Source of the DNA: Escherichia coli
GTDB taxonomy: Bacteria > Pseudomonadota > Gammaproteobacteria > Enterobacterales > Enterobacteriaceae
Length of the DNA stretch: 64,000 bases
NCBI RefSeq assembly: GCF_003019035.1
Contig: NZ_CP027447.1
Reading direction: 5' to 3' (one strand)
A program made the position numbers and the translations under genes. A model generated the notes under the pieces. The model saw only the letters and a list, made by a program, of their open reading frames with translations, had not been told where the DNA came from and ran no database searches. Of this stretch, positions 18,677 through 43,181 are shown in pieces. Positions within the stretch are counted from its first letter, which is position 1. Each line of letters opens with the position of its first letter.

Positions 18677-18855
18677 ACAAAAACCTTACATTAACGCTGG
18701 TTATGTTTAGGGTGGCGTATATTAAAGTTTTTTATGAATTGTGACAGCTTTTTATCATTAATAGGTAGGATTATTGCGGCACGTTATTTTTACACTGGTT
18801 ATAAAAGTTGCCGATTGCGTAGAATGTAGACAAAAGCGTGGTGTCAAGGAGGGGA

Positions 18856-20160
18856 GGGTAACGCAGGGAAAGATTACGAAAGCCCGCTCCCCGCAAGGAC
18901 TGACGCCAGATAGTTTCTGTCCATGGCTGCTTTTCGCATCTTACGTCTTAACCCTGCCTTGAATACCTTATCATTCGTCAAAATATTAATAGCGATGTGC
19001 CGTATCCCTGAAAATAATTCTGCTGCATTTCCTCTTCTTATTTTGCAGTCGTCTTCATTCATTACCACGTCCAGACGCCAGTGCAGCTTATTCTCCACGT
19101 GCCAGTGGTTTCGGATTGCTGTGGCGAACTTCTCTGCGGTTAAATCAGCAGAACTGATATAATATCTGACCGTCATTTCGGGCTCTTTCTTTTGTTCTGC
19201 TATTATTGACCGAAAGGAGACTGCCACGCATAATTTCTTCAGACCTTTCCATTCAAACGTGAAATCAATAAGTTCATCAGGGACATCGCAAACAATGTGA
19301 AGACGGATTTCTTCTCTGCCGTGACTCTTTTCACTCATTGCGTAACTGTCATGCTCTGGATTATTTAATTCTTTCAGCGGAAATTTTTCCTCGAAGGCTT
19401 TATTTAGCCGCCCCTGGTTTCCTTTTACAGCGAATAAATAATCACCTCCCTGTTTTTGTATCTTCTCTGCAATATCTTTCTGGCAACCCATCGCATCAGT
19501 TGTGATGATTTTTCCTTTAATATCCAGCATGTTAAGAAGTTCTTGGATAGCTGTAATCTCATTGGATTTCTCATCCGTCCTGATCTGTCCGATGACCAGA
19601 CTATGCATTGTTGAGAACGCACTAATGACATGAATCGCTCCCTTGCGGCGACTCTTGTCATAAGAGTGCCGGAGCGTTTTTCCATCAATTGCAATGACGC
19701 CTTTATCATCTGAAGAATGGCAGTCACGCATCCAGTTAATAAAGCACTCGTGAAATTTTGCAGGACTGATACAGGATACAACTCTGGCAATGGTATCGTG
19801 AACAGGAATACCATTTTCAAAATCACCATATTGCTTCAAAAAATCGAGATGTGTTTCCCCAAAATCCTCTATATCTTCCCAGCCTTCTGCACCAGAAATA
19901 ACGGCACAAATAGTCAACAGTAGAATATCCGACAATTTATGTTCCACTTTCCAGGCTTGTCTGTACTCGGGAATAACAGAAATATGTTCTATCAATTTTT
20001 TAAGTACCATTTTGTTCTCCTTAATTATGTAAGGAGTATTTGATCATGTATAAGCAATAAAAAACAGCTTCAGGTAATGAGGAATATCTCAATTTTTAAA
20101 CATAAAATGCGAATTATTTAGTACAAAAAAGCAGCGTTACGTGATCTTTCCCTGTGTAAT
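18856..20160 (-). mobile_element. H-repeat / ISAs1-family insertion sequence (about 1.3 kb)
   Basis: Contains the 378-aa H-repeat-associated transposase; imperfect terminal inverted repeats centred on CAGGGAAAGAT (18861-18878 versus reverse complement of 20139-20156, 15/17 identical); boundaries approximate to about 5 bp. Confidence 0.75.
18874..20010 (-). CDS. ISAs1-family (H-repeat-associated, YhhI-like) transposase
   Basis: 378-aa [53 protein letters not shown]...; near-identical to the recalled E. coli H-rpt protein family. Confidence 0.9.
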
Positions 20161-20834
20161 CCCCCAGCTAAATCATGAACTTTTTGAGCCATTTTACTTA
20201 ATTCAGGGCAGGCTCCTAAACCTAATGGATCTGTGAAGCAACACGGATTCAGCACATAACCATAAGTGTTTAGTCCACCCAATACACCCAGGGGGTCACT
20301 CACCAGATACATCCCGGTCTCCGGCTCGTAGTACCGGAACCGGTTATAGCACAGCCCTGACTCCGCATCCCGCCACTGCCCCGCATACAGCAGACCGGGG
20401 TCCGCTTCTGCGTCTCGCTCCCCGCGCGGGTCCGGGTAGTCCCTGTCTGCGCTGACGCTGAGTGCCAGCCCCCACAGGCTGGTCTGCTCCGCACGCCACA
20501 CCACGTTACCCTGACTGTTAAAGAGCATCACCGGGCGGCCTGTCAGGTCGCTTACCGCATGGCTGGTCCGCGTCACCCACTGCGGGGCCACGGACGGGTG
20601 CGGCTGCCGTACCCGGCTGAACTGCTGGCTTATCAGCTCAAAGCCGTTAAACACCAGGTACCGCACACTGTACAGTTTATCATCGCGGTATTCCCGGATT
20701 TCCGCAATAGTGTCGCCGTCCCACAGATATGTGATGCGGAGGGCTTTTTGTTTGCAGCGTTTCTCTGTCCGTCTGCCACTGGCGTCGTGGCAGTATTCCC
20801 ACTGCTCACCCCGGGCGCTGCGGTAGCCGATCAC
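20118..20834 (-). pseudogene. orphan rhs C-terminal fragment (last about 206 aa of Rhs core plus a truncated alternative tip)
   Basis: Homologous to residues about 1260-1470 of the upstream Rhs through the PxxxxDPxGL core end (DPLGL); no upstream ORF or canonical start; only about 19 native residues follow DPLGL before the reading frame runs into the IS terminal repeat. Confidence 0.7.
20217..20834. repeat. direct repeat copy 1 (rhs core 3' end, orphan copy)
   Basis: About 620 bp, high-identity copy of 21694-22311 visible in both nucleotide and protein alignment. Confidence 0.75.
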
Positions 20835-20863
20835 GGCTGTCGTGGCGGAACTTTATCTCTTTT

Positions 20864-21253
20864 TTATTTAATCCAGTAAGCTAATCTCTCACCAATCTTC
20901 AAATTTTCTCTTTTGTAATAAAATACAGTATCAAAGTTAATGGATATTTTTTTCGCAATAACTTTGAATTTCAATTCAAATTCCGAATAAAACTCTAATA
21001 CTAACATTTCACGAGCATTGTCAGTGCAACTTGATAGCTTAATAAACTCCTCATTAAGATCGCATGACCAGTCCATAACACCGCTAATATAGCATGGCGT
21101 GTCTATTATTATTTCCAGTGTGTGATAGTAAGAAAGGTCATCACTCCCGGAAATAATCAAGCGATTATGTTCATAAAGAAAAACTGAAAAATCCAACCAA
21201 CTTTCTTTCCAATTATGGTGCTTTATATCATTAATTATGTTTTGCTCACTCAT
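20864..21253 (-). CDS. candidate cognate immunity protein for the Rhs C-terminal toxin
   Basis: 129-aa AT-rich ORF; its ATG overlaps the rhs TGA stop in a 4-bp ATGA overlap; positional analogy to rhsI genes; no family recognised from sequence. Confidence 0.6.
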   Translation of the reverse strand: MSEQNIINDIKHHNWKESWLDFSVFLYEHNRLIISGSDDLSYYHTLEIIIDTPCYISGVMDWSCDLNEEFIKLSSCTDNAREMLVLEFYSEFELKFKVIAKKISINFDTVFYYKRENLKIGERLAYWIK

Positions 21254-24200
21254 GGAATAGTTCCTGTAGGCAATGGTATATGAGTATCATTTGCAGCTCC
21301 TGGATTATAATTCGGACTTTTAGTTTTCAAATCAGATGTATGATGCCAACTGCCATCAGGAGAACCATACTCCCAACCATAGCCTTGATTAGTCGCAGGA
21401 TTTGTTCCACTTTGGCTTCTACCAATCCTATATATGGGGCCATTGGCAGAATTACTCCCTGCTGGAGCAGTAGGGTTTACATCATGAGCCCTTACTTCAT
21501 ATTTATAATTTCCGACGGTGAATTTTTCTTTAAATTTTATAGGGTAGTTATGCCCAGACAAGCCTTGCCGATGTAAAGCATAATTTAACACATCCTGCGG
21601 TGAGGTATTTTTAATTGCTTGATGCGCTTGTGCTGCTGTCATACCTTGAGAACGATTGTATTTATACCAATCATACATCACAGGACATATAGCTAATCCC
21701 AAAGGATCAACATACCCCAGCGGATTAGGCACATACCGGTAAGTCTGCTCACCCCCCAGCAACCCCAGTGGATCACTCACCAGGTACATCCCGGTTTCCG
21801 GCTCGTAATACCGGAACCGGTTATAGCACAGCCCCGATTCCGCATCCTGCCACTGCCCCGCATACAGCAGGCCGGGGTCGGCTTCCGGGTCCAGCTCCCC
21901 GCGCGGGTCCGGGTAGCCGGTGTCTGCGGGCAGGCTGAGTGCCAGCCCCCACAGGCTGGTCTGCCCCGGTCGCCAGACGGTTTTACCTTCACTGTTAAAG
22001 AGCACCAGCGGACGGCCCGTCAGGTCGCTCACCGCATGATTCGTTCGCGTCACCCACTGCGGGGCCACGGACGGATGCGGCTGCCGTACCCGGCTGAACT
22101 GCTGACTCAGCAGCTCAAAGCCGTTAAACACCAGGTGCCGTACGCTGTACAGTTTATCATCCCGGTATTCCCGCATTTCCGCAATACTGTCGCCGTCCCA
22201 CAGATACGTAAAACGGATTTTCTTCCGGTCGCAGCGTTTTTCCGTCCGCCTGCCGCTGGCGTCGTGGCGGTATTCCCACTGCTCACCCTGTGCGCTGCAA
22301 TACCCGGTCAGCTGGTCCCGGCTGTCCCACCGGAACCGCTCTGTTTCCGGGCGGTAGCCGTCACGGTGTCTGGTGCGGCTGACCATCCGGCCTGCGGCGT
22401 CATAGCTGTAGTCTGTGTTTCCGGTCTGTTTCAGCCGGTGGCCGCGCTGATACATGTCAGTATCCACGCTTATCCGGTGCCTGCCCGCCGACTGCGCCTT
22501 CAGGTAGCCACAACTGTCATAGCCATAGGACTCATCGCCTTCGCCATAGCCCAGCCCGGTGCCTGAGGCTGTCACCGCCGTGACCTGGCCGTTCCGGTCC
22601 AGCCGGTACTCCCGCCGTGTTTCCCGTCCGTAGTCTTCCCGGCTGGTGACAGCCGACATATTGCCCGCGCTGTCGTAACGGTACTCCCGCACCAGTGAGG
22701 GGAGCAGTCCGCCCCATGTGGCTTCCGCCGGGAAAAGTCCGGCGCGCTGGCTGGTAAGCTGACCGGCTGCATTCCAGCCCTGCTCACAGGCAAAACCCCG
22801 GTTACTGTGCCGGAGCACTTCACGTCCTGCCTCATCACGGCTGAACGTCAGCGTCTCATCCCCCGGCAGGATAACCTCCGTCAGTTCTCCGGCGGCGTTG
22901 TAGCGGTAGGTGGTTTTCAGCAGGGATTCACCGGGGTGTCTGTCGCGTTCATCTTCCGGTGGCAGGATACAGCGGATGACGGTGTGTTCATCGGGGTGGT
23001 GGTATTCAATGGCCCGTCGGCCCTGAGTGGTGACATTCACCCGCCCGCGTTCGTCATAGCCGGTGCGCTGTGATGTACCGTCCGGGCTGAAGATACCCGT
23101 CAGCCTGCCGGATTTGTCATAGGCATACTGCGTTTTGCCTTCCGGCGAGATGACTTCTGCCAGGCGGCCTGCGGCGTCCCGGCTGTAGAGGATAGTTTCC
23201 TCCAGGCCGTTAACCCTGGCGGTACAAAGGCCATCGGCGTCATAGCGGTAACGCCAGACCACGCCGCCCCAGTCACGCTCTTCCGTCACCCGTCCACAGT
23301 TGTCCAGAATATAACGGTATGACTCGCCCTGCGGATTGATGACTTCTGTCAGTTGCAGCGTGTCTTTATCGTAGCGGTACTGCCAGCGGTGGCCTTCACC
23401 GTCCGTTCGCGCCACCGGCAAATCGAACGGGCCGTATTCCATCGTCCAGACAACGCCGTTGCCGTCCGTCCAGGCCAGCAGGTTGCCGTGGCGGTCATAG
23501 CGAAATCCTTCCGCGCCGGTGCCAGTGCGTTCAAGGCCGCTCAGTTTATGGTGCTGCTGCCACCGTAACCGCACTGACTGACCGCCGGGGCCGCGCATCT
23601 TCACCGGCAGGTCGTGACCGCTGTATTCGGTGTGGTGTTCACGGCCCATCACGTCGGTGAGTGTTTCCGGCCGGTTGTGGTGGTCGTACTCTATGCCCAG
23701 ACGCCGTTCATCCTGGCGGAATATCCCCGACAGCAGCCCCTGCGGCGTGTACGCCAGCCGGGTCTCTTCGCCCTGTGGCGACACCAGACTTACCGGCAGG
23801 CCGCGTTCATCACACTGCTGCGTCCACATCTGCCCGGCAGGGTCGGTGATGTTGCTGAGCAGGCCGCGCTCATCATAGCAGTACTGCCACTCCGCACCGT
23901 CTGCCGCCGTGTAACGGCTTAACTGACCGTGTGCGGCGTTGTATTCAAACTTCTCCACCCGCCCGGCAGGGGAGTGGCGGGCCAGCAGGTGATGGAATTC
24001 ATCCCATTCATACATGGTGGTGCTGCCGTCCGGCGCTGCTTCCCGCAGAATATTGCCGTCAGGATCATAGTAATAACGGTGAATGCCCTTGCCGTCCGTC
24101 ACGGTGGTGCAGCCGTCACCATAGTCCAGCGTGGCGTTGTAATAGCCCTCCGCCCCGGTGACGGTCACGCACCGGCCCTGTGCATCGTAGGTGAAACGGC

Positions 24201-26103
24201 TCCACGTCTGGTCGTTATCGGACCAGCGGATGATCCGGTCCGCAGCGTCGTACTCATAAAACAGGTGGTAGTCCAGCCGCGCATCCGCTTCTGTCAGCCG
24301 CCCCCGCGCATCCTGTTCGTAGGTCGCCAGCATCTGTATGCCGTTATCCGTACGGTGAATGGCTTTCAGGTAGCCGCTGGCATGGTACGTCAGTTTAAGC
24401 CGGATCCCGTCGGTGTGACTGACACCCATGATGCGGTACTGGCTGTCGCGCTCAAACGTGATGCGGTTGCTGGCGGTGTCGCTCATCCCGCCCAGCATGT
24501 ACATCCGGTCTGCGGGGCTGTGTGCCAGACGGTCATCGCAGGTATCGTCAGTCACCGGGTGGCGCAGGCGCATTCCCGGAAAGGCGTCATAAAAGAAGCG
24601 GCTGCTCAGTGCATCACGGTCGAACAGCTCCAGGTAATCGTCGCGGCGGCGCAGAATGTACTGGGCGTGATACGGGTTAACCGCCGTATCACTGTCACCG
24701 TCGAAGGCAAATCTCAGCGTGGTTCCCTGGCTGATGATATCCACCCGGTTTCCCTGTTCACGCACCCAGGCGTATTCGCTCCAGGAGTCGCTCCAGCCCA
24801 CGCCCGTCAGACCATGCAGCGGCAGTACAGAACTGTGGAAACGGGTGAAGGAGAGGGGGAGTGTCTGGCCCAGCGTAAAGTCGGTACGTTCGTCGCAGTA
24901 TGCGCCGGTTACCGGATCGACAGGATCTGTTACCCATCTGATGACTTTATTGGCAATACTTTTTAACGACTTACCTGTTTTCCCCAGCAACGCGCCGAGC
25001 TTTGCCCCCAGCAGCTTCCCGCTTTTCCCCAGCAGGTTTCCCAGTTTGCCGAGTTTCGCCAGATTCCCCAGTTTTCCCAGCAGTCCCGCGGGCGGCAGAA
25101 GATAGCTGGCTATCGTTATTCCCCCCAGGATCATTCTCTGCCACGGCGGGAACTCCGGCTGGATATCCAGATAGGTCACCTGTTCACCGCCAATAAAGAC
25201 GTCCGGCGAACCTTCCACGATTGCCGCGCTGCACTCCAGTTTGTCCCCTTTGCGTGCGGCAGTCTGATTGTTGATAAAGACGTTGCTGCTGCCCTGGGCT
25301 ATCCTCGGTGGTTTGTTCTCCTTGTCGCAGAGCGCCGTGTCCTCACCGGCTTCCGGGAAATCCACGTCTTTTTTGATTTCGCCACGCCCGCCCACCATGG
25401 TGGCAAACTCCATTAATACCGGACCGGCGGGAAACAGAAGCGATGCGCCGGCGCTGACGCGATCCATAATACCGGCATTGCTGTCCGTCAGGGTGATAAC
25501 AGCGTTCCCCCAGGCCTTCGCCAGTGGTACTGCTTTTTCCGCTGCCGATTCAAGCAGGTCAGTGGCAATATCACCCCATGAGGGTTCCCCCTGTGGTGGA
25601 GAGGGTATTGCTTCAGTCAGGGGAGGAGGGGGAAGGGTGACGGCGGCCCTGGCAGCGGGCTTTCCGTTAATGTTTACATTTTTAGAACCAGTATTGATGG
25701 CCCCGTCCGTGTCACAAAAACTGTTTATCCATGATTCAAGCTGGTTCTGTTTCTCCTCCACATAATCACTCGCCTTATAGCTGGCATACATCAGCGCAGG
25801 CACCAGAACCAGCGCATAAGGGCCGGTGGCACAGGCGGCCATAATCAGGCAACCTTCTGCGATGGTCACTATCGCCCCCAGCACGGCCCCTGCCAGCGCC
25901 CCCAAAAAACTCTTGTGCTGAATTTCATCGCCCAGCCTGGCTGCGGGGGGGCCAGACTTTTTTGATGCCAACATCTGTGCAATGGCTTTGTCGTTGGCTG
26001 CCCGTTTCATCTGGCTGGCGACCATCGCCTGCTGTGACAGCATTCGCATTGCCAGCGTACCGCCTGCGGTCGCTCCCTGTGGCCCGCCTGGTCCTTCACT
26101 CAT
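21250..26103 (-). CDS. rhs: prePAAR/PAAR-domain Rhs-family polymorphic toxin (T6SS effector) with variable C-terminal toxin tip
   Basis: 1617-aa ORF: N-terminal AARLGDEIQH (prePAAR-like AARxxDxxxH), hydrophobic helices, PAAR-like segment (ARKGDKLECSAAIVEGSPDVFIGG), long YD/Rhs repeat region, core terminating at DPLGL, then a 147-aa low-GC tip. Confidence 0.9.
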   Translation of the reverse strand: MSEGPGGPQGATAGGTLAMRMLSQQAMVASQMKRAANDKAIAQMLASKKSGPPAARLGDEIQHKSFLGALAGAVLGAIVTIAEGCLIMAACATGPYALVLVPALMYASYKASDYVEEKQNQLESWINSFCDTDGAINTGSKNVNINGKPAARAAVTLPPPPLTEAIPSPPQGEPSWGDIATDLLESAAEKAVPLAKAWGNAVITLTDSNAGIMDRVSAGASLLFPAGPVLMEFATMVGGRGEIKKDVDFPEAGEDTALCDKENKPPRIAQGSSNVFINNQTAARKGDKLECSAAIVEGSPDVFIGGEQVTYLDIQPEFPPWQRMILGGITIASYLLPPAGLLGKLGNLAKLGKLGNLLGKSGKLLGAKLGALLGKTGKSLKSIANKVIRWVTDPVDPVTGAYCDERTDFTLGQTLPLSFTRFHSSVLPLHGLTGVGWSDSWSEYAWVREQGNRVDIISQGTTLRFAFDGDSDTAVNPYHAQYILRRRDDYLELFDRDALSSRFFYDAFPGMRLRHPVTDDTCDDRLAHSPADRMYMLGGMSDTASNRITFERDSQYRIMGVSHTDGIRLKLTYHASGYLKAIHRTDNGIQMLATYEQDARGRLTEADARLDYHLFYEYDAADRIIRWSDNDQTWSRFTYDAQGRCVTVTGAEGYYNATLDYGDGCTTVTDGKGIHRYYYDPDGNILREAAPDGSTTMYEWDEFHHLLARHSPAGRVEKFEYNAAHGQLSRYTAADGAEWQYCYDERGLLSNITDPAGQMWTQQCDERGLPVSLVSPQGEETRLAYTPQGLLSGIFRQDERRLGIEYDHHNRPETLTDVMGREHHTEYSGHDLPVKMRGPGGQSVRLRWQQHHKLSGLERTGTGAEGFRYDRHGNLLAWTDGNGVVWTMEYGPFDLPVARTDGEGHRWQYRYDKDTLQLTEVINPQGESYRYILDNCGRVTEERDWGGVVWRYRYDADGLCTARVNGLEETILYSRDAAGRLAEVISPEGKTQYAYDKSGRLTGIFSPDGTSQRTGYDERGRVNVTTQGRRAIEYHHPDEHTVIRCILPPEDERDRHPGESLLKTTYRYNAAGELTEVILPGDETLTFSRDEAGREVLRHSNRGFACEQGWNAAGQLTSQRAGLFPAEATWGGLLPSLVREYRYDSAGNMSAVTSREDYGRETRREYRLDRNGQVTAVTASGTGLGYGEGDESYGYDSCGYLKAQSAGRHRISVDTDMYQRGHRLKQTGNTDYSYDAAGRMVSRTRHRDGYRPETERFRWDSRDQLTGYCSAQGEQWEYRHDASGRRTEKRCDRKKIRFTYLWDGDSIAEMREYRDDKLYSVRHLVFNGFELLSQQFSRVRQPHPSVAPQWVTRTNHAVSDLTGRPLVLFNSEGKTVWRPGQTSLWGLALSLPADTGYPDPRGELDPEADPGLLYAGQWQDAESGLCYNRFRYYEPETGMYLVSDPLGLLGGEQTYRYVPNPLGYVDPLGLAICPVMYDWYKYNRSQGMTAAQAHQAIKNTSPQDVLNYALHRQGLSGHNYPIKFKEKFTVGNYKYEVRAHDVNPTAPAGSNSANGPIYRIGRSQSGTNPATNQGYGWEYGSPDGSWHHTSDLKTKSPNYNPGAANDTHIPLPTGTIP
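21253..21693 (-). other. Rhs C-terminal toxin domain (147 aa after DPLGL); candidate WHH/HNH-type nuclease
   Basis: Abrupt drop in GC content after the DPLGL junction; motif GSWHHTSD...NYNPGAAN...THIP near the C-terminus resembles the His-His...Asn...His arrangement of HNH/EndoVII-fold toxin domains. Confidence 0.45.
21694..22311. repeat. direct repeat copy 2 (rhs core 3' end, main gene)
   Basis: Homologous to 20217-20834; substrate for homologous recombination that would swap toxin tips. Confidence 0.75.
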
Positions 26104-26122
26104 GTGTTATCCCTCGTTTATG

Positions 26123-26584
26123 TCAGCGCGGCTGGTCCTTTTGGATGTCATTCTCCGGTGGCAACGGGGTGAAGCTCTTTATCACCTCCAGCAGCATCGT
26201 CTTTTGACTGTTCTTCAGGGATAAGGAGGTGCTGAAAGTGAAGGTCAGCAGCGTATCTCCACGCCGCTGGAATACGGCTATCTGGCTAATCCGCCCCTGA
26301 TTCCCTTCATCTTCCGGACCGTTCCAGGAATAATCCAGCAGCCAGGCCGGGGCCTCTGCCAGAGTGATTTCCCGGCAGGCATGTTCGGTGTACCCATCAA
26401 GTTTGCCCTGGTACAGCGCCAGCGTTTCCTGGTACAGCTCTGGTGTCAGGGTTCCCTGTGGAACGGCTTCGCGGGTAATGACCAGGTTGATGCCACTGTT
26501 ATCTGTGGACACCAGGACCTGCATTGACTGATCCTGCCATTGAGACGGCAGTTGAATGTGGCCTTCATTAAAAGTGAACTGCAT
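26123..26584 (-). CDS. DUF1795 / Eag-family effector-associated chaperone
   Basis: 153-aa ORF between vgrG and the prePAAR-Rhs gene, tightly spaced; size and position typical of EagR-type chaperones. Confidence 0.75.
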   Translation of the reverse strand: MQFTFNEGHIQLPSQWQDQSMQVLVSTDNSGINLVITREAVPQGTLTPELYQETLALYQGKLDGYTEHACREITLAEAPAWLLDYSWNGPEDEGNQGRISQIAVFQRRGDTLLTFTFSTSLSLKNSQKTMLLEVIKSFTPLPPENDIQKDQPR

Positions 26585-26611
26585 AAAATACTCCCTGTTA
26601 ATCTGAGTGAA

Positions 26612-28513
26612 TCAGTTGATGAAAACAGAACCGCCCACGATGGTGATGCCATCCTTCGACAGCCTGATTACCGTCGATTCCCCGACCTGTAGCTGTATGC
26701 CATCCGGCGTCAGCGCAATTTTGCTTTCCTCCACGGCCAGCAAAATTTCCTTAATCGCCGTATAAGCCTGTATACCGTCGCCTTCGCCACCATTGTTTAC
26801 AGCGTCAACATGCACCGAACCGGCAATCGTGCCTCTGTCCTGAAAGACATCCTCAGATAAAGACCCTTTCAGTACTCCGGTGATCTTGTGGCCTTTTTCC
26901 ACCGTAAGAAGGCGGTTACCTTCCTGGATCGTGACCGTCTGGTCATTTTTTACGGTTTCGCGGTGATCGTGTTTTACGGTGGTGGTACGGTCGTTGAGCA
27001 CTTCGGTATCCATGTTCTTCTGCGCGTGGATGTAGACCTGTTCTCTCCCTGTCGCATCATCAAACTTCAGCTCATTAAATCCGCTGCCCATGTACGTTTT
27101 GGAGCGGATGGTCATCTGCGTCTTTGTTCCCGGCAGGCTGCCGGGGGTGCGGTTTTCCTGGTGGTAGGTGCGCCCCATAATGATCGGCTGGTCCGGATCG
27201 CCGTTGAGGAAGTCTACAATCACTTCCTGACCCACACGCGGTATCGCCAGGTGGCCAAAACCGGTGCCTGCCCACGCCTGTGCCACACGGATCCAGCACG
27301 AACTGTCTTGGTCTGCCGGGTTATAACGGTCCCAGTTGAACTTCACCCGCACGCGACCATGTTCGTCGCAGAAGATTTCCTCGCCTGCCGGTCCTGTCAC
27401 GACAGCGCTCTGCGGGCCGTCGACCAGCGGTTTCAGCAACGGCTGTGGTCGCCATGTTCTGTCTGCCGGGATCACCGCAAAATGGTTCTCCAGCGCCGTC
27501 CCCGCTCCCTGCCGTCCTGGCACCGCCTGTGGCTGTTCGCCGTGCAGTTCACTTGCCACCACCTGCCATTCCCGGTTCAGGTTCGCCTGCGGATGCCCCG
27601 TCAGCACAATTCGTCGTCCCGGCCATATCTCCGGCGAGCGACTCATTCCCCGCGCGGTTTCTGCATTGTTTCGCCAGCCGTCCATCTGCCAGCGGGCAAA
27701 GTTCTGCCCGTGGGCACCCTTGAAACGTCCGGGGTAGTCATACACTTCATACTGCGTGCGCTGGTAGTCCTGGTGCTGGCCTTCCTGTTCAAAACGTCCG
27801 GCCCAGCCGGGGCGTTTAAAGGTGTAGTCTTTGGTCACCACGGAAGAAGGGCGGATTTGTGCGCTGTAGCGGAACTGGCTGATGCAGAGGGTGCTCACCT
27901 CGGTACGGGTGTTCGGGTTCCATGGGATTTCAAAAGATTCGGGCAGATGGCGGACTGTGTCGCACAGCACCAGGCTCTGGTCGGTACTTTTGTAAGCATG
28001 CTCCTCATAAAAGAAGATGCCTTCCTCCGCCGCCATCCGGCACAGGAAATCGTAATCAGTCTCACCGTACTGGACACAAAACTCACGGGAAGGATGCGGC
28101 TCGCTGAACAGCGGACTCCATTCGGTCACCCCGTTTTCCTGCAACATCGTGCCGAGGATGCTTTTGATGTCCTCGTTCTGGAAGATACGGAAGTTCTGGC
28201 GCAGACCGGCACGCCACAGCGGCGGGTGCACCTTCATGCTGTACAGCATCTGGTTTTTGTCGTTCTCCCCCAGTTCAAACCAGGTCACCACGCCTTTCAC
28301 CCGGCGCTGTACTTCATCGCCCTGCCATATCGTCAGGTAGGCCATTTTGTCCAGCACCTGCGCAAATTCAAGGGAGAGAAACTGCTGGCTGACCAGGGAG
28401 AGATCGAGGGAAAAGAGCGAAGAGAGTGACTGGTTCAGATGAAAGGAAACCACCGCAAAAGCATCCGGCGGCAGGCCGTCCACTTCCAGTGTGAAACGTA
28501 ATCCGGTTGACAT
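26612..28513 (-). CDS. vgrG: type VI secretion spike protein VgrG
   Basis: 633-aa ORF starting MSTGLRFTLEVDGLPPDAF... with gp27/gp5-like regions and a C-terminal beta-helix-like segment; canonical VgrG N-terminus. Confidence 0.9.
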   Translation of the reverse strand: MSTGLRFTLEVDGLPPDAFAVVSFHLNQSLSSLFSLDLSLVSQQFLSLEFAQVLDKMAYLTIWQGDEVQRRVKGVVTWFELGENDKNQMLYSMKVHPPLWRAGLRQNFRIFQNEDIKSILGTMLQENGVTEWSPLFSEPHPSREFCVQYGETDYDFLCRMAAEEGIFFYEEHAYKSTDQSLVLCDTVRHLPESFEIPWNPNTRTEVSTLCISQFRYSAQIRPSSVVTKDYTFKRPGWAGRFEQEGQHQDYQRTQYEVYDYPGRFKGAHGQNFARWQMDGWRNNAETARGMSRSPEIWPGRRIVLTGHPQANLNREWQVVASELHGEQPQAVPGRQGAGTALENHFAVIPADRTWRPQPLLKPLVDGPQSAVVTGPAGEEIFCDEHGRVRVKFNWDRYNPADQDSSCWIRVAQAWAGTGFGHLAIPRVGQEVIVDFLNGDPDQPIIMGRTYHQENRTPGSLPGTKTQMTIRSKTYMGSGFNELKFDDATGREQVYIHAQKNMDTEVLNDRTTTVKHDHRETVKNDQTVTIQEGNRLLTVEKGHKITGVLKGSLSEDVFQDRGTIAGSVHVDAVNNGGEGDGIQAYTAIKEILLAVEESKIALTPDGIQLQVGESTVIRLSKDGITIVGGSVFIN

Positions 28514-29249
28514 AGCAACCTCCAGTAAAATGAATAATGATCCGTACCGTACAACTGCGGATAATGTGATAAGCGGGACGACTTCAGACGTTATTAGGGA
28601 AGGAACAGAAAATGCTATGGTTATGTGAGAATTTTGTTTAAATATTACTTTACAGAAACGGGTGTCTGTTCAGTCAAAAAAATAATCACAAGCTCAACCT
28701 CTTGTTTCTTGGCGTTATTCAGGACAGGTACGCATATCACAACGAGTAACAAAAACGCAAAGTTAAACCAATATTCATAATATATTTTTATTCACAGCAA
28801 TAAATAATCCAATTAACATTATTAAAATGAATGATTGCATAAGAAATATATGCTACCGCTCCACCCTGATAACATGATCTGCACATTGCACATCTTAACG
28901 TTGTTAAATACTGGCTCAATAGTGGATATTTTAAATTAGGAATTTATCAAATTCACTTGATAAATAGATTGAGTGAATAATATAACAATTAATGATGATT
29001 AATCGCGATTAAATTATTCATTGCTTTATATGATAGATGGCTTGTTTATAACGATGAAAATTTAGAAAGGGCATTGTGATCTACAATTGGAAGAAACACA
29101 GATTTAACTAAGTTTCATATACAAACATCTCGTGAAACTTTGAAAAATAAAAGCCTTCGATATTTCATATGTTTAATAAGTTTTTCTCTAATTTGTTGAT
29201 CAACAATACCAGGAGGTGATGCACCACGCCCTGAATTTGAACTTAATAA

Positions 29250-30698
29250 TCACTCTCTCTCCGGCAGCATAATCACAAACCTTGACCCCCGCGCATCTGA
29301 CGTTACTGCAACCGTGCCTTTATGCGCGACAACAATTGATTTCACTATCGCCAGCCCAATGCCGCTACCTTCGCCTTTTCGCTGGCGGGAAGGATCAACG
29401 CGGTAGAAACGGTCAAACAATCGCGGTAAGTGTTCGGGCGCAATGGGCGTACCGGGGTTTTCGACGGAAACTTGCACCTGGTGATCGACCGTCTGGCAGC
29501 GCACAACAATTGCCTCTCCGGGTGGCGTATAACGCAGGGCGTTCGAAAGCAGGTTGCTTAACGCCCGACGCAACATCAGCGGATCGCCCGCAACCTGACA
29601 CTCGTCACCAACAAACCGCAACTCCACGCCGCGATCTTCCGCTAACGCCTCGAAAAAATCGAACACTTTGCCGACTTCATCCGCCAGGTTGAGCATTTTC
29701 TTTTCGGGGATTAACTGGTTGTTATCGGCCTGAGCGAGAAACAGCATATCGCTGACCATTTTCGCCATTCGAGTCAGCTCTTCGAGATTAGAGTAGAGCA
29801 CATCTTCCAGCTCCTTCTGACTGCGCGACTGGCTGAGGGCGATTTCCGTTTGCGTTATGAGATTCGTAATCGGCGTGCGAATTTCGTGAGCGATATCCGC
29901 TGAGAAATTGGACTGGCGGGTAAAGACATCCTCGATACGCTCGATCATATGGTTGAACGACAGCACCAGTTGTTCGAGTTCAATGGGCACGGTCTGTGGA
30001 TCGAGGCGAACGTCGAGATCTTTCGAGGTAATGTTCTGGATTTGACGGCTGACGCTGCGAATTGGCGCGTGGCCTTTATGTACCGCCAGCAGCACGATAA
30101 AGACGATCAGGATGCTGATGATCGATGCGGTCATAATAAGTTTATTCATCAAATCATTTATGTAATGAAGATGAAAATCGATCGAAAGCGCGATGTAGAG
30201 CGTATAAATCGGTTTGCCGTCCACCAACGGGCCAACCGGCAAGTTAATCATCCGCCAGTTGCTGTGTTCCATATGCCCGTGACCGTGGCCTGGCATCATA
30301 ATCGTCGGGCCGGAAAGGAGATACACCTCGCCACCCTGAGCGTCTTTATCGGGTATGGCGTCACGCGTAAACTCGCGGATATCCGGCGCACCGGGGGAGT
30401 GATACACCGTTTTGCCGTGGCTATCTGCCAGGGAAATCAACACGTTGGAATAACCACTGACGATATCTTCCAGCGTCATTAAGCGTCGGGCTTGCGTCTC
30501 GTCAGGATGATTAAGTACCCGTTCAAGGGTGGCGCTAATTTCTTTTAAATCATTAATATCCTGCTCGGCAAAATGCACTTTCACTGAGTGGATCATGATC
30601 CATGCAAAGGCGAAAAACGCCGCGATGGTGGCCAGGCTGATAAAAAAGGTCAGACGGGTTGCCAGCGAAAACGGGCGCTGAAATGGCTTACTGACCAT
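29250..30698 (-). CDS. cusS: copper/silver sensor histidine kinase CusS
   Basis: [19 protein letters not shown]... with HisKA/HATPase regions; overlaps the cusR stop. Confidence 0.93.
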
Positions 30699-31371
30699 CC
30701 GGCACCTCAAGCATATAGCCCACGCCGCGCACGGTCTGAATCAGCTTCGGCTCAAAGTCGTTGTCGATTTTGCCGCGTAGCCGCTTCACCGCCACATCAA
30801 TGGCGTTAGTGTCGCTGTCGAAATTCATGTCCCACACCTGCGAGGCGATAAGCGAGCGGGGCAGCACTTCACCCTGATGGCGGAGGAAAAACTCCAGCAA
30901 AGTAAATTCTTTACTGGTCAACGTGATGCGCGTGCCGCTACGGGTGACTTTGCGGCTGACGAGATCGACCATCAGATCGGCAACCTGAAACTGACTTTCG
31001 ATAATCACCGCCGCCCCGCGCCGCAGTAGAGTGCGCACCCGCGCCAGCAGTTCAGCAAAAGCGAACGGCTTAACCAGATAGTCATCCGCCCCCAACTCCA
31101 GCCCCTTGACGCGATGTTCAATGGTGCCAAGCGCGGTAAGCAACAGAATCGGCATCCCCTTATTGGCGGAACGCAACATGCGCACGATATCCCAGCCGTT
31201 CACGTCCGGCAGCATAATATCGAGGATTATCAGATCATAATCACCGGTCATCGCCAGATGGTAGCCATTCAGCCCGTTGTCGGCCAAATCGACCACAAAA
31301 CCGGCTTCGGTTAACCCTTTGGTCAAGTATTCTCCGGTTTTCTTTTCATCTTCGACAATCAACAGTTTCAT
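30688..31371 (-). CDS. cusR: copper/silver response regulator CusR (OmpR family)
   Basis: 227-aa [23 protein letters not shown]...; receiver plus winged-helix domain. Confidence 0.95.
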
Positions 31372-34515: not shown

Positions 34516-37500
34516 ATGATTGAATGGATTATTCGTCGCTCGGTGGCGAACCGTTTTCTGGTGCTGATGGGCGCGTTGTTTCTGAGCATCTGGGGCACCT
34601 GGACCATCATTAACACGCCAGTGGATGCACTGCCGGATCTCTCTGATGTACAGGTGATTATTAAAACCAGCTATCCCGGTCAGGCACCGCAAATCGTTGA
34701 AAATCAGGTGACTTATCCGCTAACCACCACCATGTTGTCGGTGCCTGGCGCGAAGACTGTGCGCGGTTTCTCGCAGTTTGGCGACTCTTATGTGTATGTC
34801 ATTTTCGAAGATGGCACCGATCCGTACTGGGCGCGCTCGCGGGTGCTGGAGTACCTCAACCAGGTACAGGGTAAGCTGCCTGCGGGAGTCAGCGCCGAGC
34901 TGGGGCCAGATGCCACGGGTGTTGGCTGGATCTATGAATATGCACTGGTGGATCGCAGCGGTAAGCACGATCTGGCCGATTTACGCTCATTGCAGGACTG
35001 GTTTCTCAAATATGAGCTAAAAACCATCCCTGACGTTGCGGAAGTGGCGTCGGTGGGCGGTGTGGTGAAAGAGTATCAGGTGGTTATCGATCCTCAGCGC
35101 CTGGCGCAGTATGGCATCAGTCTCGCCGAAGTAAAAAGCGCGCTGGATGCTTCAAACCAGGAAGCGGGCGGTTCGTCGATCGAACTGGCGGAAGCGGAAT
35201 ATATGGTGCGCGCCAGCGGATATCTGCAAACGCTCGACGACTTTAATCACATCGTTTTAAAAGCCAGTGAAAATGGCGTGCCCGTTTATCTGCGTGATGT
35301 TGCGAAGGTCCAGGTTGGCCCGGAGATGCGCCGGGGCATTGCCGAACTGAACGGCGAAGGCGAAGTGGCGGGCGGGGTGGTGATCCTGCGTTCCGGCAAA
35401 AACGCCCGTGAAGTGATCGCTGCCGTGAAGGACAAACTGGAAACGCTGAAAAGCAGTCTGCCGGAAGGCGTGGAGATAGTTACAACATACGATCGCAGCC
35501 AGCTCATTGACCGCGCCATTGACAACCTCAGTGGCAAGTTGCTGGAAGAGTTTATTGTGGTGGCGGTAGTCTGTGCGCTGTTTCTCTGGCATGTGCGCTC
35601 GGCGCTGGTGGCGATTATTTCGTTGCCGCTGGGGTTGTGTATTGCTTTTATTGTCATGCACTTTCAGGGACTGAACGCCAATATTATGTCGTTGGGTGGC
35701 ATTGCGATTGCCGTCGGGGCGATGGTCGATGCCGCTATCGTCATGATCGAGAATGCGCATAAACGGCTGGAAGAGTGGCAGCACCAGCATCCTGACGCCA
35801 CGCTGGATAATAAAACGCGCTGGCAGGTGATCACCGAAGCATCTGTTGAAGTGGGTCCGGCGCTGTTTATCAGTCTGCTGATTATCACGCTGTCGTTTAT
35901 CCCGATCTTCACCCTGGAAGGGCAGGAAGGTCGTCTGTTTGGCCCGCTGGCGTTCACCAAAACCTATGCGATGGCGGGCGCGGCGCTACTGGCGATCGTA
36001 GTGATCCCGATCCTGATGGGCTACTGGATCCGTGGCAAAATTCCGCCGGAAAGCAGTAACCCGCTCAATCGCTTTTTGATTCGTGTTTATCATCCGCTGT
36101 TGCTGAAAGTACTGCACTGGCCGAAAACCACGCTGTTGGTGGCAGCGCTTTCGGTGCTGACGGTTCTCTGGCCGCTCAATAAAGTTGGCGGGGAATTTTT
36201 ACCGCAGATCAATGAAGGCGACTTGTTGTATATGCCATCGACGCTGCCGGGGATTTCCGCAGCAGAGGCGGCGAGTATGCTGCAAAAAACCGACAAGCTG
36301 ATTATGAGCGTACCGGAAGTGGCGCGGGTATTTGGCAAAACCGGGAAAGCGGAAACCGCCACCGATTCTGCTCCGCTGGAGATGGTAGAAACGACTATTC
36401 AGCTTAAGCCGCAGGATCAGTGGCGGCCTGGCATGACGATGGACAAAATCATTGAGGAACTGGATAACACCGTGCGGCTGCCGGGGCTGGCGAATCTGTG
36501 GGTGCCGCCAATTCGTAACCGTATCGATATGCTCTCAACCGGCATTAAAAGCCCTATCGGCATTAAAGTTTCCGGCACTGTGCTGGCGGATATCGACACG
36601 ATGGCGGAGCAAATTGAAGAAGTGGCGCGAACGGTGCCAGGCGTGGCTTCTGCGCTTGCTGAGCGTCTGGAAGGTGGGCGCTATATCAACGTTGAGATTA
36701 ACCGTGAAAAAGCCGCGCGTTACGGTATGACGGTGGCGGATGTGCAGTTGTTTGTGACTTCTGCGGTGGGCGGGGCGATGGTTGGCGAAACGGTGGAAGG
36801 GATTGCCCGTTATCCAATTAATCTGCGTTATCCGCAAAGCTGGCGCGATAGCCCGCAGGCACTGCGCCAGTTGCCGATCCTCACGCCGATGAAGCAGCAA
36901 ATCACCCTGGCAGACGTGGCCGACGTTAAAGTCTCTACCGGACCGTCGATGCTGAAAACCGAGAATGCGCGCCCGACGAGCTGGATTTATATCGATGCCC
37001 GCGATCGTGACATGGTGTCGGTGGTTCACGATCTGCAAAAAGCGATAGCTGAAAAAGTGCAGTTAAAACCGGGCACCAGCGTGGCATTCTCCGGGCAGTT
37101 CGAGCTACTGGAGCGCGCCAACCATAAGCTGAAACTGATGGTGCCGATGACGCTGATGATCATCTTCGTGCTGTTATATCTGGCGTTCCGTCGGGTGGGC
37201 GAAGCGTTGCTGATTATCAGCAGCGTACCGTTTGCGCTGGTGGGCGGCATCTGGTTGCTGTGGTGGATGGGCTTTCATCTTTCCGTGGCAACGGGCACCG
37301 GTTTTATCGCCCTTGCGGGGGTCGCCGCCGAATTTGGCGTGGTGATGCTGATGTATTTACGTCACGCCATAGAGGCCGAGCCGTCGTTGAATAATCCGCA
37401 AACATTCAGCGAGCAGAAGCTGGATGAGGCGTTATATCACGGCGCGGTACTGCGCGTGCGCCCGAAAGCGATGACGGTGGCGGTGATTATCGCTGGTCTG

Positions 37501-42053: not shown

Positions 42054-43181
<1,128 letters not shown>

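Follow-up and report, generated by a model that had tools for sequence, protein, structure and literature searches.

A probable H-NS-silenced promoter and RfaH/ops-type leader in the spacer between cusS and an orphan vgrG-rhs island of Escherichia coli

Control of type VI secretion system (T6SS) genes by RfaH is already known from Escherichia coli CFT073 (2022), from the Sci1 cluster of enteroaggregative E. coli (EAEC; 2025 preprint) and from Erwinia amylovora, the latter as cited in that preprint (bioRxiv 10.1101/2025.02.08.637259). Here we analyze the AT-rich spacer between cusS and vgrG in a stretch of 64,000 nt from another E. coli genome (contig NZ_CP027447.1, assembly GCF_003019035.1; the whole stretch is called the window below), which probably controls an orphan vgrG-rhs island from its 5' side. 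The closest described system is that of CFT073, where eight leader ops sites show an RfaH signal in chromatin immunoprecipitation sequencing (ChIP-seq; Hustmyer et al. 2022, PMC9765446, Data set S2). One of the eight is GGCGGTAGCGTA at 1715753-1715764, 313 nt upstream of c1882. At this site an hns stpA double mutant is required to see the RfaH signal as well as a sigma-70 peak, whereas in the wild type the locus is bound by H-NS, proximally and over several of its genes, and the authors called c1882-c1889 a cryptic RfaH-regulated locus (PMC9765446). We found that the c1882 region is a PAAR-vgrG cassette at ansP/yncG. For the EAEC Sci1 cluster, the dependence on RfaH and ops was established by mutation of ops and of rfaH (bioRxiv 10.1101/2025.02.08.637259). 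Classical JUMPstart elements precede waaQ (rfaQ), the O-antigen genes (wzx) and kps: they carry GCGGTAG on the non-template strand of the 5' leader behind a conserved (C)AGTGC...TGT.A...CAGG half, serve long, horizontally acquired operons and are bound by H-NS. Finally, the main T6SS cluster of enterohaemorrhagic E. coli (EHEC) EDL933 and the Salmonella pathogenicity island 6 (SPI-6) are AT-rich, horizontally acquired T6SS loci that are silent in laboratory culture, and the main EHEC cluster is de-repressed in an hns mutant.

The spacer and the parts relevant for its proposed function are the following, where 'E-type' denotes the copy of the module at the yncH/ansP locus and 'G-type' the copy at the cusS locus.

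28514..29249, no strand: AT-rich spacer of 736 bp, from the cusS stop to the vgrG start
28514..28995, minus strand: portable leader module, composed of promoter, JUMPstart/ops element and untranslated leader and common to the paralogous vgrG locus yncH/ansP
28921..28995, minus strand: promoter region, 20% GC, directly upstream of the orthologous transcription start site, 81% identical to the E-type copy
28920, minus strand: transcription start site (TSS), assigned by orthology to EDL933 675571(-); the vgrG ATG lies at +408
28849..28893, minus strand: JUMPstart-like element, +28 to +72, ATGTGCA-ATGTGCA-N18-GAGCGGTAGCATA, with the first of the two tandem ATGTGCA at 28893-28887
28849..28860, minus strand: ops-like 12-mer AGCGGTAGCATA, +61 to +72, on the sense strand, which is non-template; proposed site of RfaH loading and pausing
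28514..28848, minus strand: untranslated AT-rich leader of 335 nt from ops to the vgrG start, with the Shine-Dalgarno sequence GGAGG at 28523-28519

A first reading of this DNA, made from the letters alone (the sequence-only reading), had described a 736-bp AT-rich non-coding gap of low GC content without any open reading frame (ORF) of 60 aa or more. All of this is correct: the gap between the vgrG and cusS ORFs is exactly 28514-29249, the longest ORFs touching it comprise 51, 45 and 43 aa, and its GC content is 0.315 (31.5%) compared to 0.523 for the whole window. It is in fact the lowest-GC 736-bp stretch of the 64-kb window, with 0.025% of such stretches being as low, and the AT-rich run quoted in that reading is located at 28770-28835. 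Taken as a whole, the reading stands only in part, as it missed both the conserved JUMPstart/ops-type site and the portable module that makes up two thirds of the spacer. We observed that the spacer consists of two parts, one of about 254 bp that adjoins cusS and is specific for this locus, and one of about 480 bp that adjoins vgrG and corresponds to the module.

The central feature of the module is the ops-like 12-mer. AGCGGTAGCATA is located on the vgrG-sense strand of the untranslated 5' leader, 336 nt upstream of the ATG, with the TSS placed by orthology to EDL933. Compared to the pattern GGCGGTAGnnTG it agrees in 8 of the 10 specified positions, the mismatches being G1 and G12; A12 is also found in the RfaH-bound CFT073 ops sequences of kps and c1882, while A1 occurs in none of the eight CFT073 sites. 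From the RfaH-bound kps ops of CFT073, GGCGGTAGCATA, it differs by a single base (G1 to A). The bases needed for RfaH recruitment (C3, G4, G5, T6, A7 and G8, i.e. CGGTAG) as well as the pause base T11 are all intact in the window. Substitutions at G4, G5, A7 and G8 abolish recruitment of RfaH, those at C3 and T6 reduce it about three-fold, in the reporter assay T11G ranks with the strongest defects, and G12C loses the pause but keeps recruitment (Zuber et al. 2018). The same 12-mer AGCGGTAGCATA is kept in the O157 lineage, whose spacer is about 94% identical to that of the window.

The conservation of the spacer is concentrated around this site. The block 28893-28849 is the best-conserved part, being 93% identical to the E-type copy compared to 78-85% for promoter and leader, and the run TATCAGGGTGG.GCGGTAGC is invariant except for one position in seven variants whose mean alignment identity is 57%. 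In addition, the core of the window module aligns colinearly with the c1882 ops region of CFT073. When compared with the leaders of rfaQ, wzx and kpsM, to which RfaH binds, the element family looks, by its sequence, like a diverged JUMPstart. Two further RfaH-bound leaders of CFT073, hlyC and c4518, share an upstream half of their own (TCTGGTmCCGGTTGAT..GGGTAA.T.CCGGAA) that resembles neither the classical JUMPstart nor the type found in the vgrG module, and judged by these alignments several JUMPstart subfamilies appear to exist.

How does the locus compare to the described systems? With CFT073 c1882-c1889 it shares the homologous core GTGCAGATCATGTyATCAGGGTrGrGCGGTAGCrTA, the AT-rich surroundings and a distance of about 310-340 nt between core and first gene of a T6SS auxiliary cassette. 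It differs in its genomic site (cusS instead of ansP/yncG), in its first gene (vgrG instead of PAAR) and in its 12-mer (AGCGGTAGCATA instead of GGCGGTAGCGTA), and the leader downstream of ops is not homologous; moreover, binding of RfaH and H-NS was measured in CFT073, whereas the window copy is known from its sequence. Like the classical JUMPstarts, the window element presents GCGGTAG on the non-template strand of a 5' leader, with a conserved half before it, and it serves a long, horizontally acquired operon. Unlike them, its upstream half is strongly diverged, positions G1 and G12 are A, and it falls below the detection of the Rfam family RF01707. The distance from ops to the start codon is 336 nt in the window, compared to 40-71 nt for rfaQ, wzx and kps and 634 nt for hly. 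With EAEC Sci1 we see a likeness in that the non-consensus ops2 keeps GGTAGNNT where the window keeps GGTAGCAT; this is a likeness of motif, and ops1 and ops2 are intergenic within the main cluster, whereas the window element belongs to the 5' leader of a vgrG-rhs island that is an orphan. The EDL933 main cluster and SPI-6 are similar to the window island as AT-rich, horizontally acquired T6SS loci, but the link of the window island to H-NS runs through the paralogous module only.

The module is widespread and occurs at more than one locus. At blastn sensitivity it was found in 4049 of 5426 complete E. coli genomes, in at most three places per genome. It is 78-83% identical both to the region upstream of vgrG in Ec-050 and to the rhsE-yncH spacer of K-12, and related copies precede vgrG or PAAR toxin cassettes at ansP/yncH in E. 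coli, other Escherichia species and Superficieibacter. In K-12 MG1655 (1527450-1527890, yncH-rhsE) the E-type module including GGCGGTAGCGTA has been kept although vgrG and the 5' part of rhsE are deleted, so that an ops-bearing, H-NS-bound leader now leads into a pseudogene. The distal 140 nt of the module (the core) also occur without the rest of the leader at the ansP locus, where the first gene behind them varies. In E. coli GF130 and Escherichia sp. E1V33 this is a 176-aa gene that has no Pfam match and precedes vgrG-rhs, in E. whittamii a 241-aa ORF and in CFT073 the PAAR-vgrG cassette. A core whose two halves are separated by an 8-nt insertion precedes AT-rich genes in Superficieibacter electus. 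In S. electus the core is followed on the minus strand by four AT-rich ORFs of 106, 134, 196 and 145 aa, none of which belongs to a Pfam family, and no vgrG is present within 3.8 kb downstream of the core. A scan of the GTDB species representatives for the exact 19-mer TATCAGGGTGGNGCGGTAGC returned three species only; either the module is taxonomically restricted or its relatives have diverged too far to match over all 19 nt. At the other end of the module, the first 600 nt of vgrG (window 27914-28513) are identical in 599 of 600 positions to the yncH-locus vgrG of Ec-050-T5-MAC, while the leader just upstream is 78-83% identical. Since this jump in identity falls at the start codon, the alignment suggests a recent gene conversion between the vgrG paralogs that ended at the ATG.

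The sequence-only reading had placed the promoter of the vgrG operon in the spacer, and this agrees with transcript mapping in EDL933. Cappable-seq was performed there in eight conditions in triplicate, and 675571(-) is the only sense TSS between cusS and the vgrG start (PMC10469882, supplements 7 and 11). The first 30 nt from this start match the window exactly, which places +1 at 28920, 407 nt upstream of the vgrG ATG. The EDL933 start was classed as orphan (more than 250 nt from a gene) and scored as stationary-phase regulated (false discovery rate 0.0014); its log2 values relative to lysogeny broth (LB), for which the sign convention is not established, are 1.45 (minimal medium), -0.99 (acid) and 2.11 (NaCl) (PMC10469882). 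At the orthologous position in the window we found the -10 hexamer TAAAAT at 28933-28928 (-13 to -8 from +1), and the best -35 hexamer at a spacing of 17 nt is GTGAAT at 28956-28951, which matches in three of six positions.

Other candidates for a promoter or regulatory site were considered and rejected. The best minus-strand promoter of our consensus scan, TTATCA-16-TATATT (28872-28845), overlaps the conserved block; against it stand the position of the mapped TSS, which lies upstream, and the GF130 and Superficieibacter copies, in which the 'spacer' between its hexamers is conserved but the -10 hexamer is not. In the leader stretch, the promoter predicted for the K-12 paralog (TTGACT-17-TATTAC) has lost its hexamer spacing in the window by a deletion of 8-12 nt, and the PhoB site of the K-12 paralog is not preserved. 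Readings of the block as a site for sigma-54, CRP, Fur, RcsB or CsrA were discarded as well, as the matches, judged by eye, are poor compared to what we take to be the respective consensus sequences.

Silencing of the spacer by H-NS, as suggested by the sequence-only reading, is plausible by analogy. The DNA has the properties of H-NS targets, i.e. it is AT-rich (GC 0.315, the minimum of the window) and horizontally acquired (the island is absent from K-12). In the promoter region, TTGATAAATT (28950-28941) matches in 9 of 10 positions what we take to be the high-affinity motif of H-NS; matches to this motif are not enriched in the window. The paralogous module is bound by H-NS both in CFT073 (see above) and in K-12, where it binds RNA polymerase holoenzyme in vitro (genomic systematic evolution of ligands by exponential enrichment) and is flagged as H-NS-bound. 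The same K-12 region was marked as H-NS-bound in a PhoB study on the basis of published ChIP-seq. The H-NS ChIP-seq supplement for enterotoxigenic E. coli H10407 contains no entry for the cusS-vgrG locus.

Taken together, these findings lead us to favor, with moderate confidence, an H-NS-silenced promoter with an RfaH/ops leader as the function of the spacer, serving the vgrG-eag(DcrB)-rhs-immunity operon of roughly 8 kb. The anatomy of the spacer, its homology and conservation and the strand and position of the ops-like element are direct observations; the start site is transferred from the EDL933 ortholog, H-NS binding from the K-12 and CFT073 paralogs and RfaH loading from CFT073. An AT-rich sigma-70 promoter, whose -10 hexamer is TAAAAT, would direct minus-strand transcription from 28920, and the first 72 nt of the transcript would comprise the JUMPstart-like element, closing with AGCGGTAGCATA on the non-template strand. 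Filaments of H-NS and StpA over the spacer would silence initiation, and may also favor pausing and Rho-dependent termination within the 335-nt leader. Once some signal had relieved initiation, RNA polymerase would pause at ops and RfaH would load in place of NusG, and the polymerase modified in this way would read through the leader and the operon.

Several observations weigh against this interpretation. The evidence on the TSS, on H-NS and on RfaH is in all three cases carried over from orthologs or paralogs. Promoter-like sites are no more common in the spacer than in shuffled sequences (3 compared to 4.0 expected in the consensus scan), the scan did not list the promoter of the start at 28920, the -35 hexamer of this promoter is poor, and its -10 hexamer is not kept in the E-type, GF130 and Superficieibacter copies. 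AGCGGTAGCATA has three mismatches to the strict ops consensus GGCGGTAGCGTG (G1A, G10A and G12A); G12 contributes to the pause, and all tested substitutions except G2C lowered the effect of RfaH (Zuber et al. 2018). By itself the motif is not significant, as GCGGTAGNNT occurs four times in the window compared to 1.6 expected and 10 of 100 shuffles reach this number, and the Rfam JUMPstart model RF01707 gives no match to the window copy at E-values up to 10. The deviations from the consensus, the failure of Rfam and the missing significance of the motif would be expected if the spacer were a plain H-NS-silenced promoter region, with the ops-like element as a decayed relic at which RfaH does not load in the G-type copy. 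We regard this as unlikely, although it deserves serious consideration. The critical bases C3-G8 and T11 are intact, A10 and A12 occur in the RfaH-bound kps ops of CFT073, no other part of the spacer is conserved as well as the block (93%), and the O157 lineage has the identical 12-mer although its whole spacer is only about 94% identical. The negative Rfam result can be explained as well: the RfaH-bound CFT073 paralog itself reaches only 19.7 bits with RF01707 (c1882 element, E = 0.036 in 201 nt; the gathering score is 35), hence the model misses this subfamily. The match in CFT073 is CAGUGCA-N18-GGGCGGUAGCGUA, and its window counterpart reads aUGUGCA-N18-GaGCGGUAGCaUa. The case for an RfaH site rests on the homology to a site with measured RfaH binding, on conservation, on strand and on the position in the leader. 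A different extension of the data starts from the upstream half of the block, GTGCAGAT...TATCAGGGTGG, which is near-invariant and conserved beyond the requirements of ops. The 480-bp module might be a self-contained portable expression cassette, composed of promoter, extended JUMPstart and leader, that accompanies T6SS auxiliary toxin cassettes when these change locus or genus, and a second T6SS-specific factor or the nascent RNA might read this half. We consider this proposal doubtful; if true, it would add a control layer on top of RfaH and H-NS.

The same conserved run, which reaches about 25 nt upstream of ops, could also serve a dedicated DNA-binding regulator as operator, or act as an alternative-sigma promoter, instead of being an RfaH site, and it would fit that a near-palindrome, TTAACaACGTTAA, lies just upstream (28907-28895) and that the block contains a GATC (Dam) site at 28879-28876. 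We consider this improbable: the block is located downstream of the mapped TSS and is thus transcribed, the homologous CFT073 copy recruits RfaH, classical JUMPstarts likewise have a conserved upstream half, the GATC is missing from the GF130, E. whittamii and Superficieibacter copies, and GG-N10-GC is, judged by eye, a poor match to the -24/-12 consensus of a sigma-54 promoter. A real product of the block, either a small leader peptide (...CRSCYQGGAVAY...) or a small RNA, was suspected in part by the sequence-only reading, which thought that the spacer might hide a small protein or small RNA. One frame is indeed open across the block in all eight variants (ORFs of 25-43 codons in our own translation), both in-block substitutions between G-type and E-type fall on third-codon positions of this frame, and the EDL933 study classed the TSS as orphan. 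Nevertheless, we hold this explanation to be very unlikely, and the suggested hidden product found no support. Conservation does not extend to starts, stops or C-termini, and frame shifts caused by indels (1, 4 and 8 nt) break ORFs between variants. Both in-block ATGs are lost in E. whittamii, the CFT073 differences fall on first-codon positions, and the third positions do not vary between E. coli and Superficieibacter, which indicates constraint at the level of nucleotides. The leader contains no conserved ORF, and the small-ORF catalogue from ribosome profiling (RIBOseq) of strain Sakai lists no translated small ORF in the spacer. For a small RNA, the Rfam search of the spacer gave only chance-level matches, no terminator was predicted, and the folding energy of +1 to +421 shows no excess (z -0.78). 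Equally far from convincing is a transcription of vgrG-rhs mainly by read-through from cusRS, which would make the island copper/silver-responsive and the spacer promoter mere background noise of AT-rich DNA. In its favor, cusR, cusS and vgrG are on the same strand, our consensus scan predicted no intrinsic terminator between cusS and vgrG, so that some vgrG transcription may possibly come from read-through, sense internal TSSs lie inside cusS in EDL933, and gene TSSs in that data set exceed non-canonical ones about ten-fold in strength. Against it, the same module precedes vgrG/PAAR cassettes at another locus, where the upstream genes are not the same, the K-12 paralog on its own binds RNA polymerase in vitro, and about 730 nt of untranslated AT-rich RNA should be a good substrate for Rho. 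A silenced promoter followed by an RfaH-dependent leader hence remains the interpretation that we prefer.

The remaining features of the locus are the following.

26612..28513, minus strand: vgrG, ORF of 633 aa, first gene of the operon, annotated as T6SS tip protein VgrG in matching genomes
28549 and 28652, plus strand: antisense TSS pair corresponding to EDL933 675202(+) and 675305(+), both reading away from vgrG, towards cusS
28996..29271, no strand: distal segment, which takes in the diverged final 22 nt of cusS and is found adjacent to cusS only
29250..30710, minus strand: cusS, ORF from a TTG start, upstream neighbor on the same strand as vgrG
18819..29271, no strand: island absent from K-12, 10.45 kb, with an ISAs1 element, an rhs fragment, rhs, the DcrB/Eag gene, vgrG and the whole spacer

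Both starts of the antisense pair were scored as stationary-phase regulated in EDL933 (PMC10469882), and a third antisense start, 675709(+), lies in the distal part that differs in the window. We read the pair as spurious promoters of AT-rich DNA. Such starts are common in DNA of this composition. For the identity of the genes we used the RefSeq annotation of E. coli SCU-301, in which a stretch is 100% identical to window 28400-29350 and is surrounded by VgrG, a DcrB-related (Eag) protein, an RHS protein and CusS. Pfam confirmed DcrB for window 26126-26584, and cusS comprises 1449 nt in RefSeq with the same stop as the window ORF 29250..30710. Two exact matches to GGCGGTAGnnTG were observed elsewhere in the window, one at 35562-35573 (+) inside cusA on its sense strand (GGCGGTAGTCTG) and one at 42390-42401 (+) antisense within ybdK (GGCGGTAGCCTG). 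As ops-like sites within coding regions of CFT073 do not bind RfaH (PMC9765446), both are probably inert.

In contrast to the portable module, the distal segment 28996-29271 was found only beside cusS (2845 genomes, typically in one place each), and no match to it exists at the ansP/yncH locus. The spacer beside cusS is present over at least 80% of its length in 2681 of the 5426 complete E. coli genomes. In the O157 lineage (O157:H7) about 150 bp of the distal segment are deleted (equivalent to about 29020-29200), and the gap measures 593 bp instead of 736 bp. The segment contains no ORF of 30 aa or more, the one ORF noted there having 20 aa (29165..29227); terminator prediction was blank and the folding energy shows no excess (z -0.86).

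Comparison with MG1655 by blastn showed that homology is lost at 18818 and regained at 29272, so that 10,453 bp in the window stand against 23 bp in K-12. The spacer had also been taken to form the right junction of the island; it does lie inside the island and carries this junction, but the alignment to K-12 does not place it exactly at the cusS stop. Clear homology begins again at 29272; the final 22 nt of cusS lie outside it, and the last codons of the gene leave the junction without a sharp edge. The C-terminus of CusS has diverged from that of K-12, which ends in ...RFVITLPA*, and the window protein is 2 aa longer; to judge from this alignment, the sensor kinase owes its altered last residues to the island junction. 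In the EHEC literature the island is named the vgrG-2 orphan locus (Z0700-Z0707). Its left part (18819-21250) consists of an ISAs1-family element and a C-terminal rhs fragment with a small downstream ORF. The annotation of SCU-301 marks the ISAs1 transposase and the main rhs as frameshifted, while the main rhs ORF is intact in the window (21250..26103, 1617 aa). IS1 elements were found around the spacer in YZ22MPE6, 600055 and PSS-16: two of these strains have IS1-bounded deletions, by which the island and its neighbors are gone up to a point inside the spacer, and one has a copy of IS1A somewhere within the stretch matching window 28400-29350. YZ22MPE6, which we considered as an 'empty site', was rejected for this purpose as it represents an IS1-mediated deletion and is uninformative on the junction.

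Beyond the known control of T6SS genes by RfaH, our analysis adds the RfaH/ops assignment for a widespread cusS-adjacent island, the modular anatomy of its spacer and a diverged JUMPstart subfamily that is missed by the Rfam model. The proposed control region explains how an orphan vgrG-rhs island probably stays silent and yet can be expressed as one long transcript. The island would thereby join the RfaH/H-NS regulon of lipopolysaccharide, capsule, hemolysin and the main T6SS cluster, and loss of rfaH or mutations in the ops core should abolish the delivery of its Rhs toxin.

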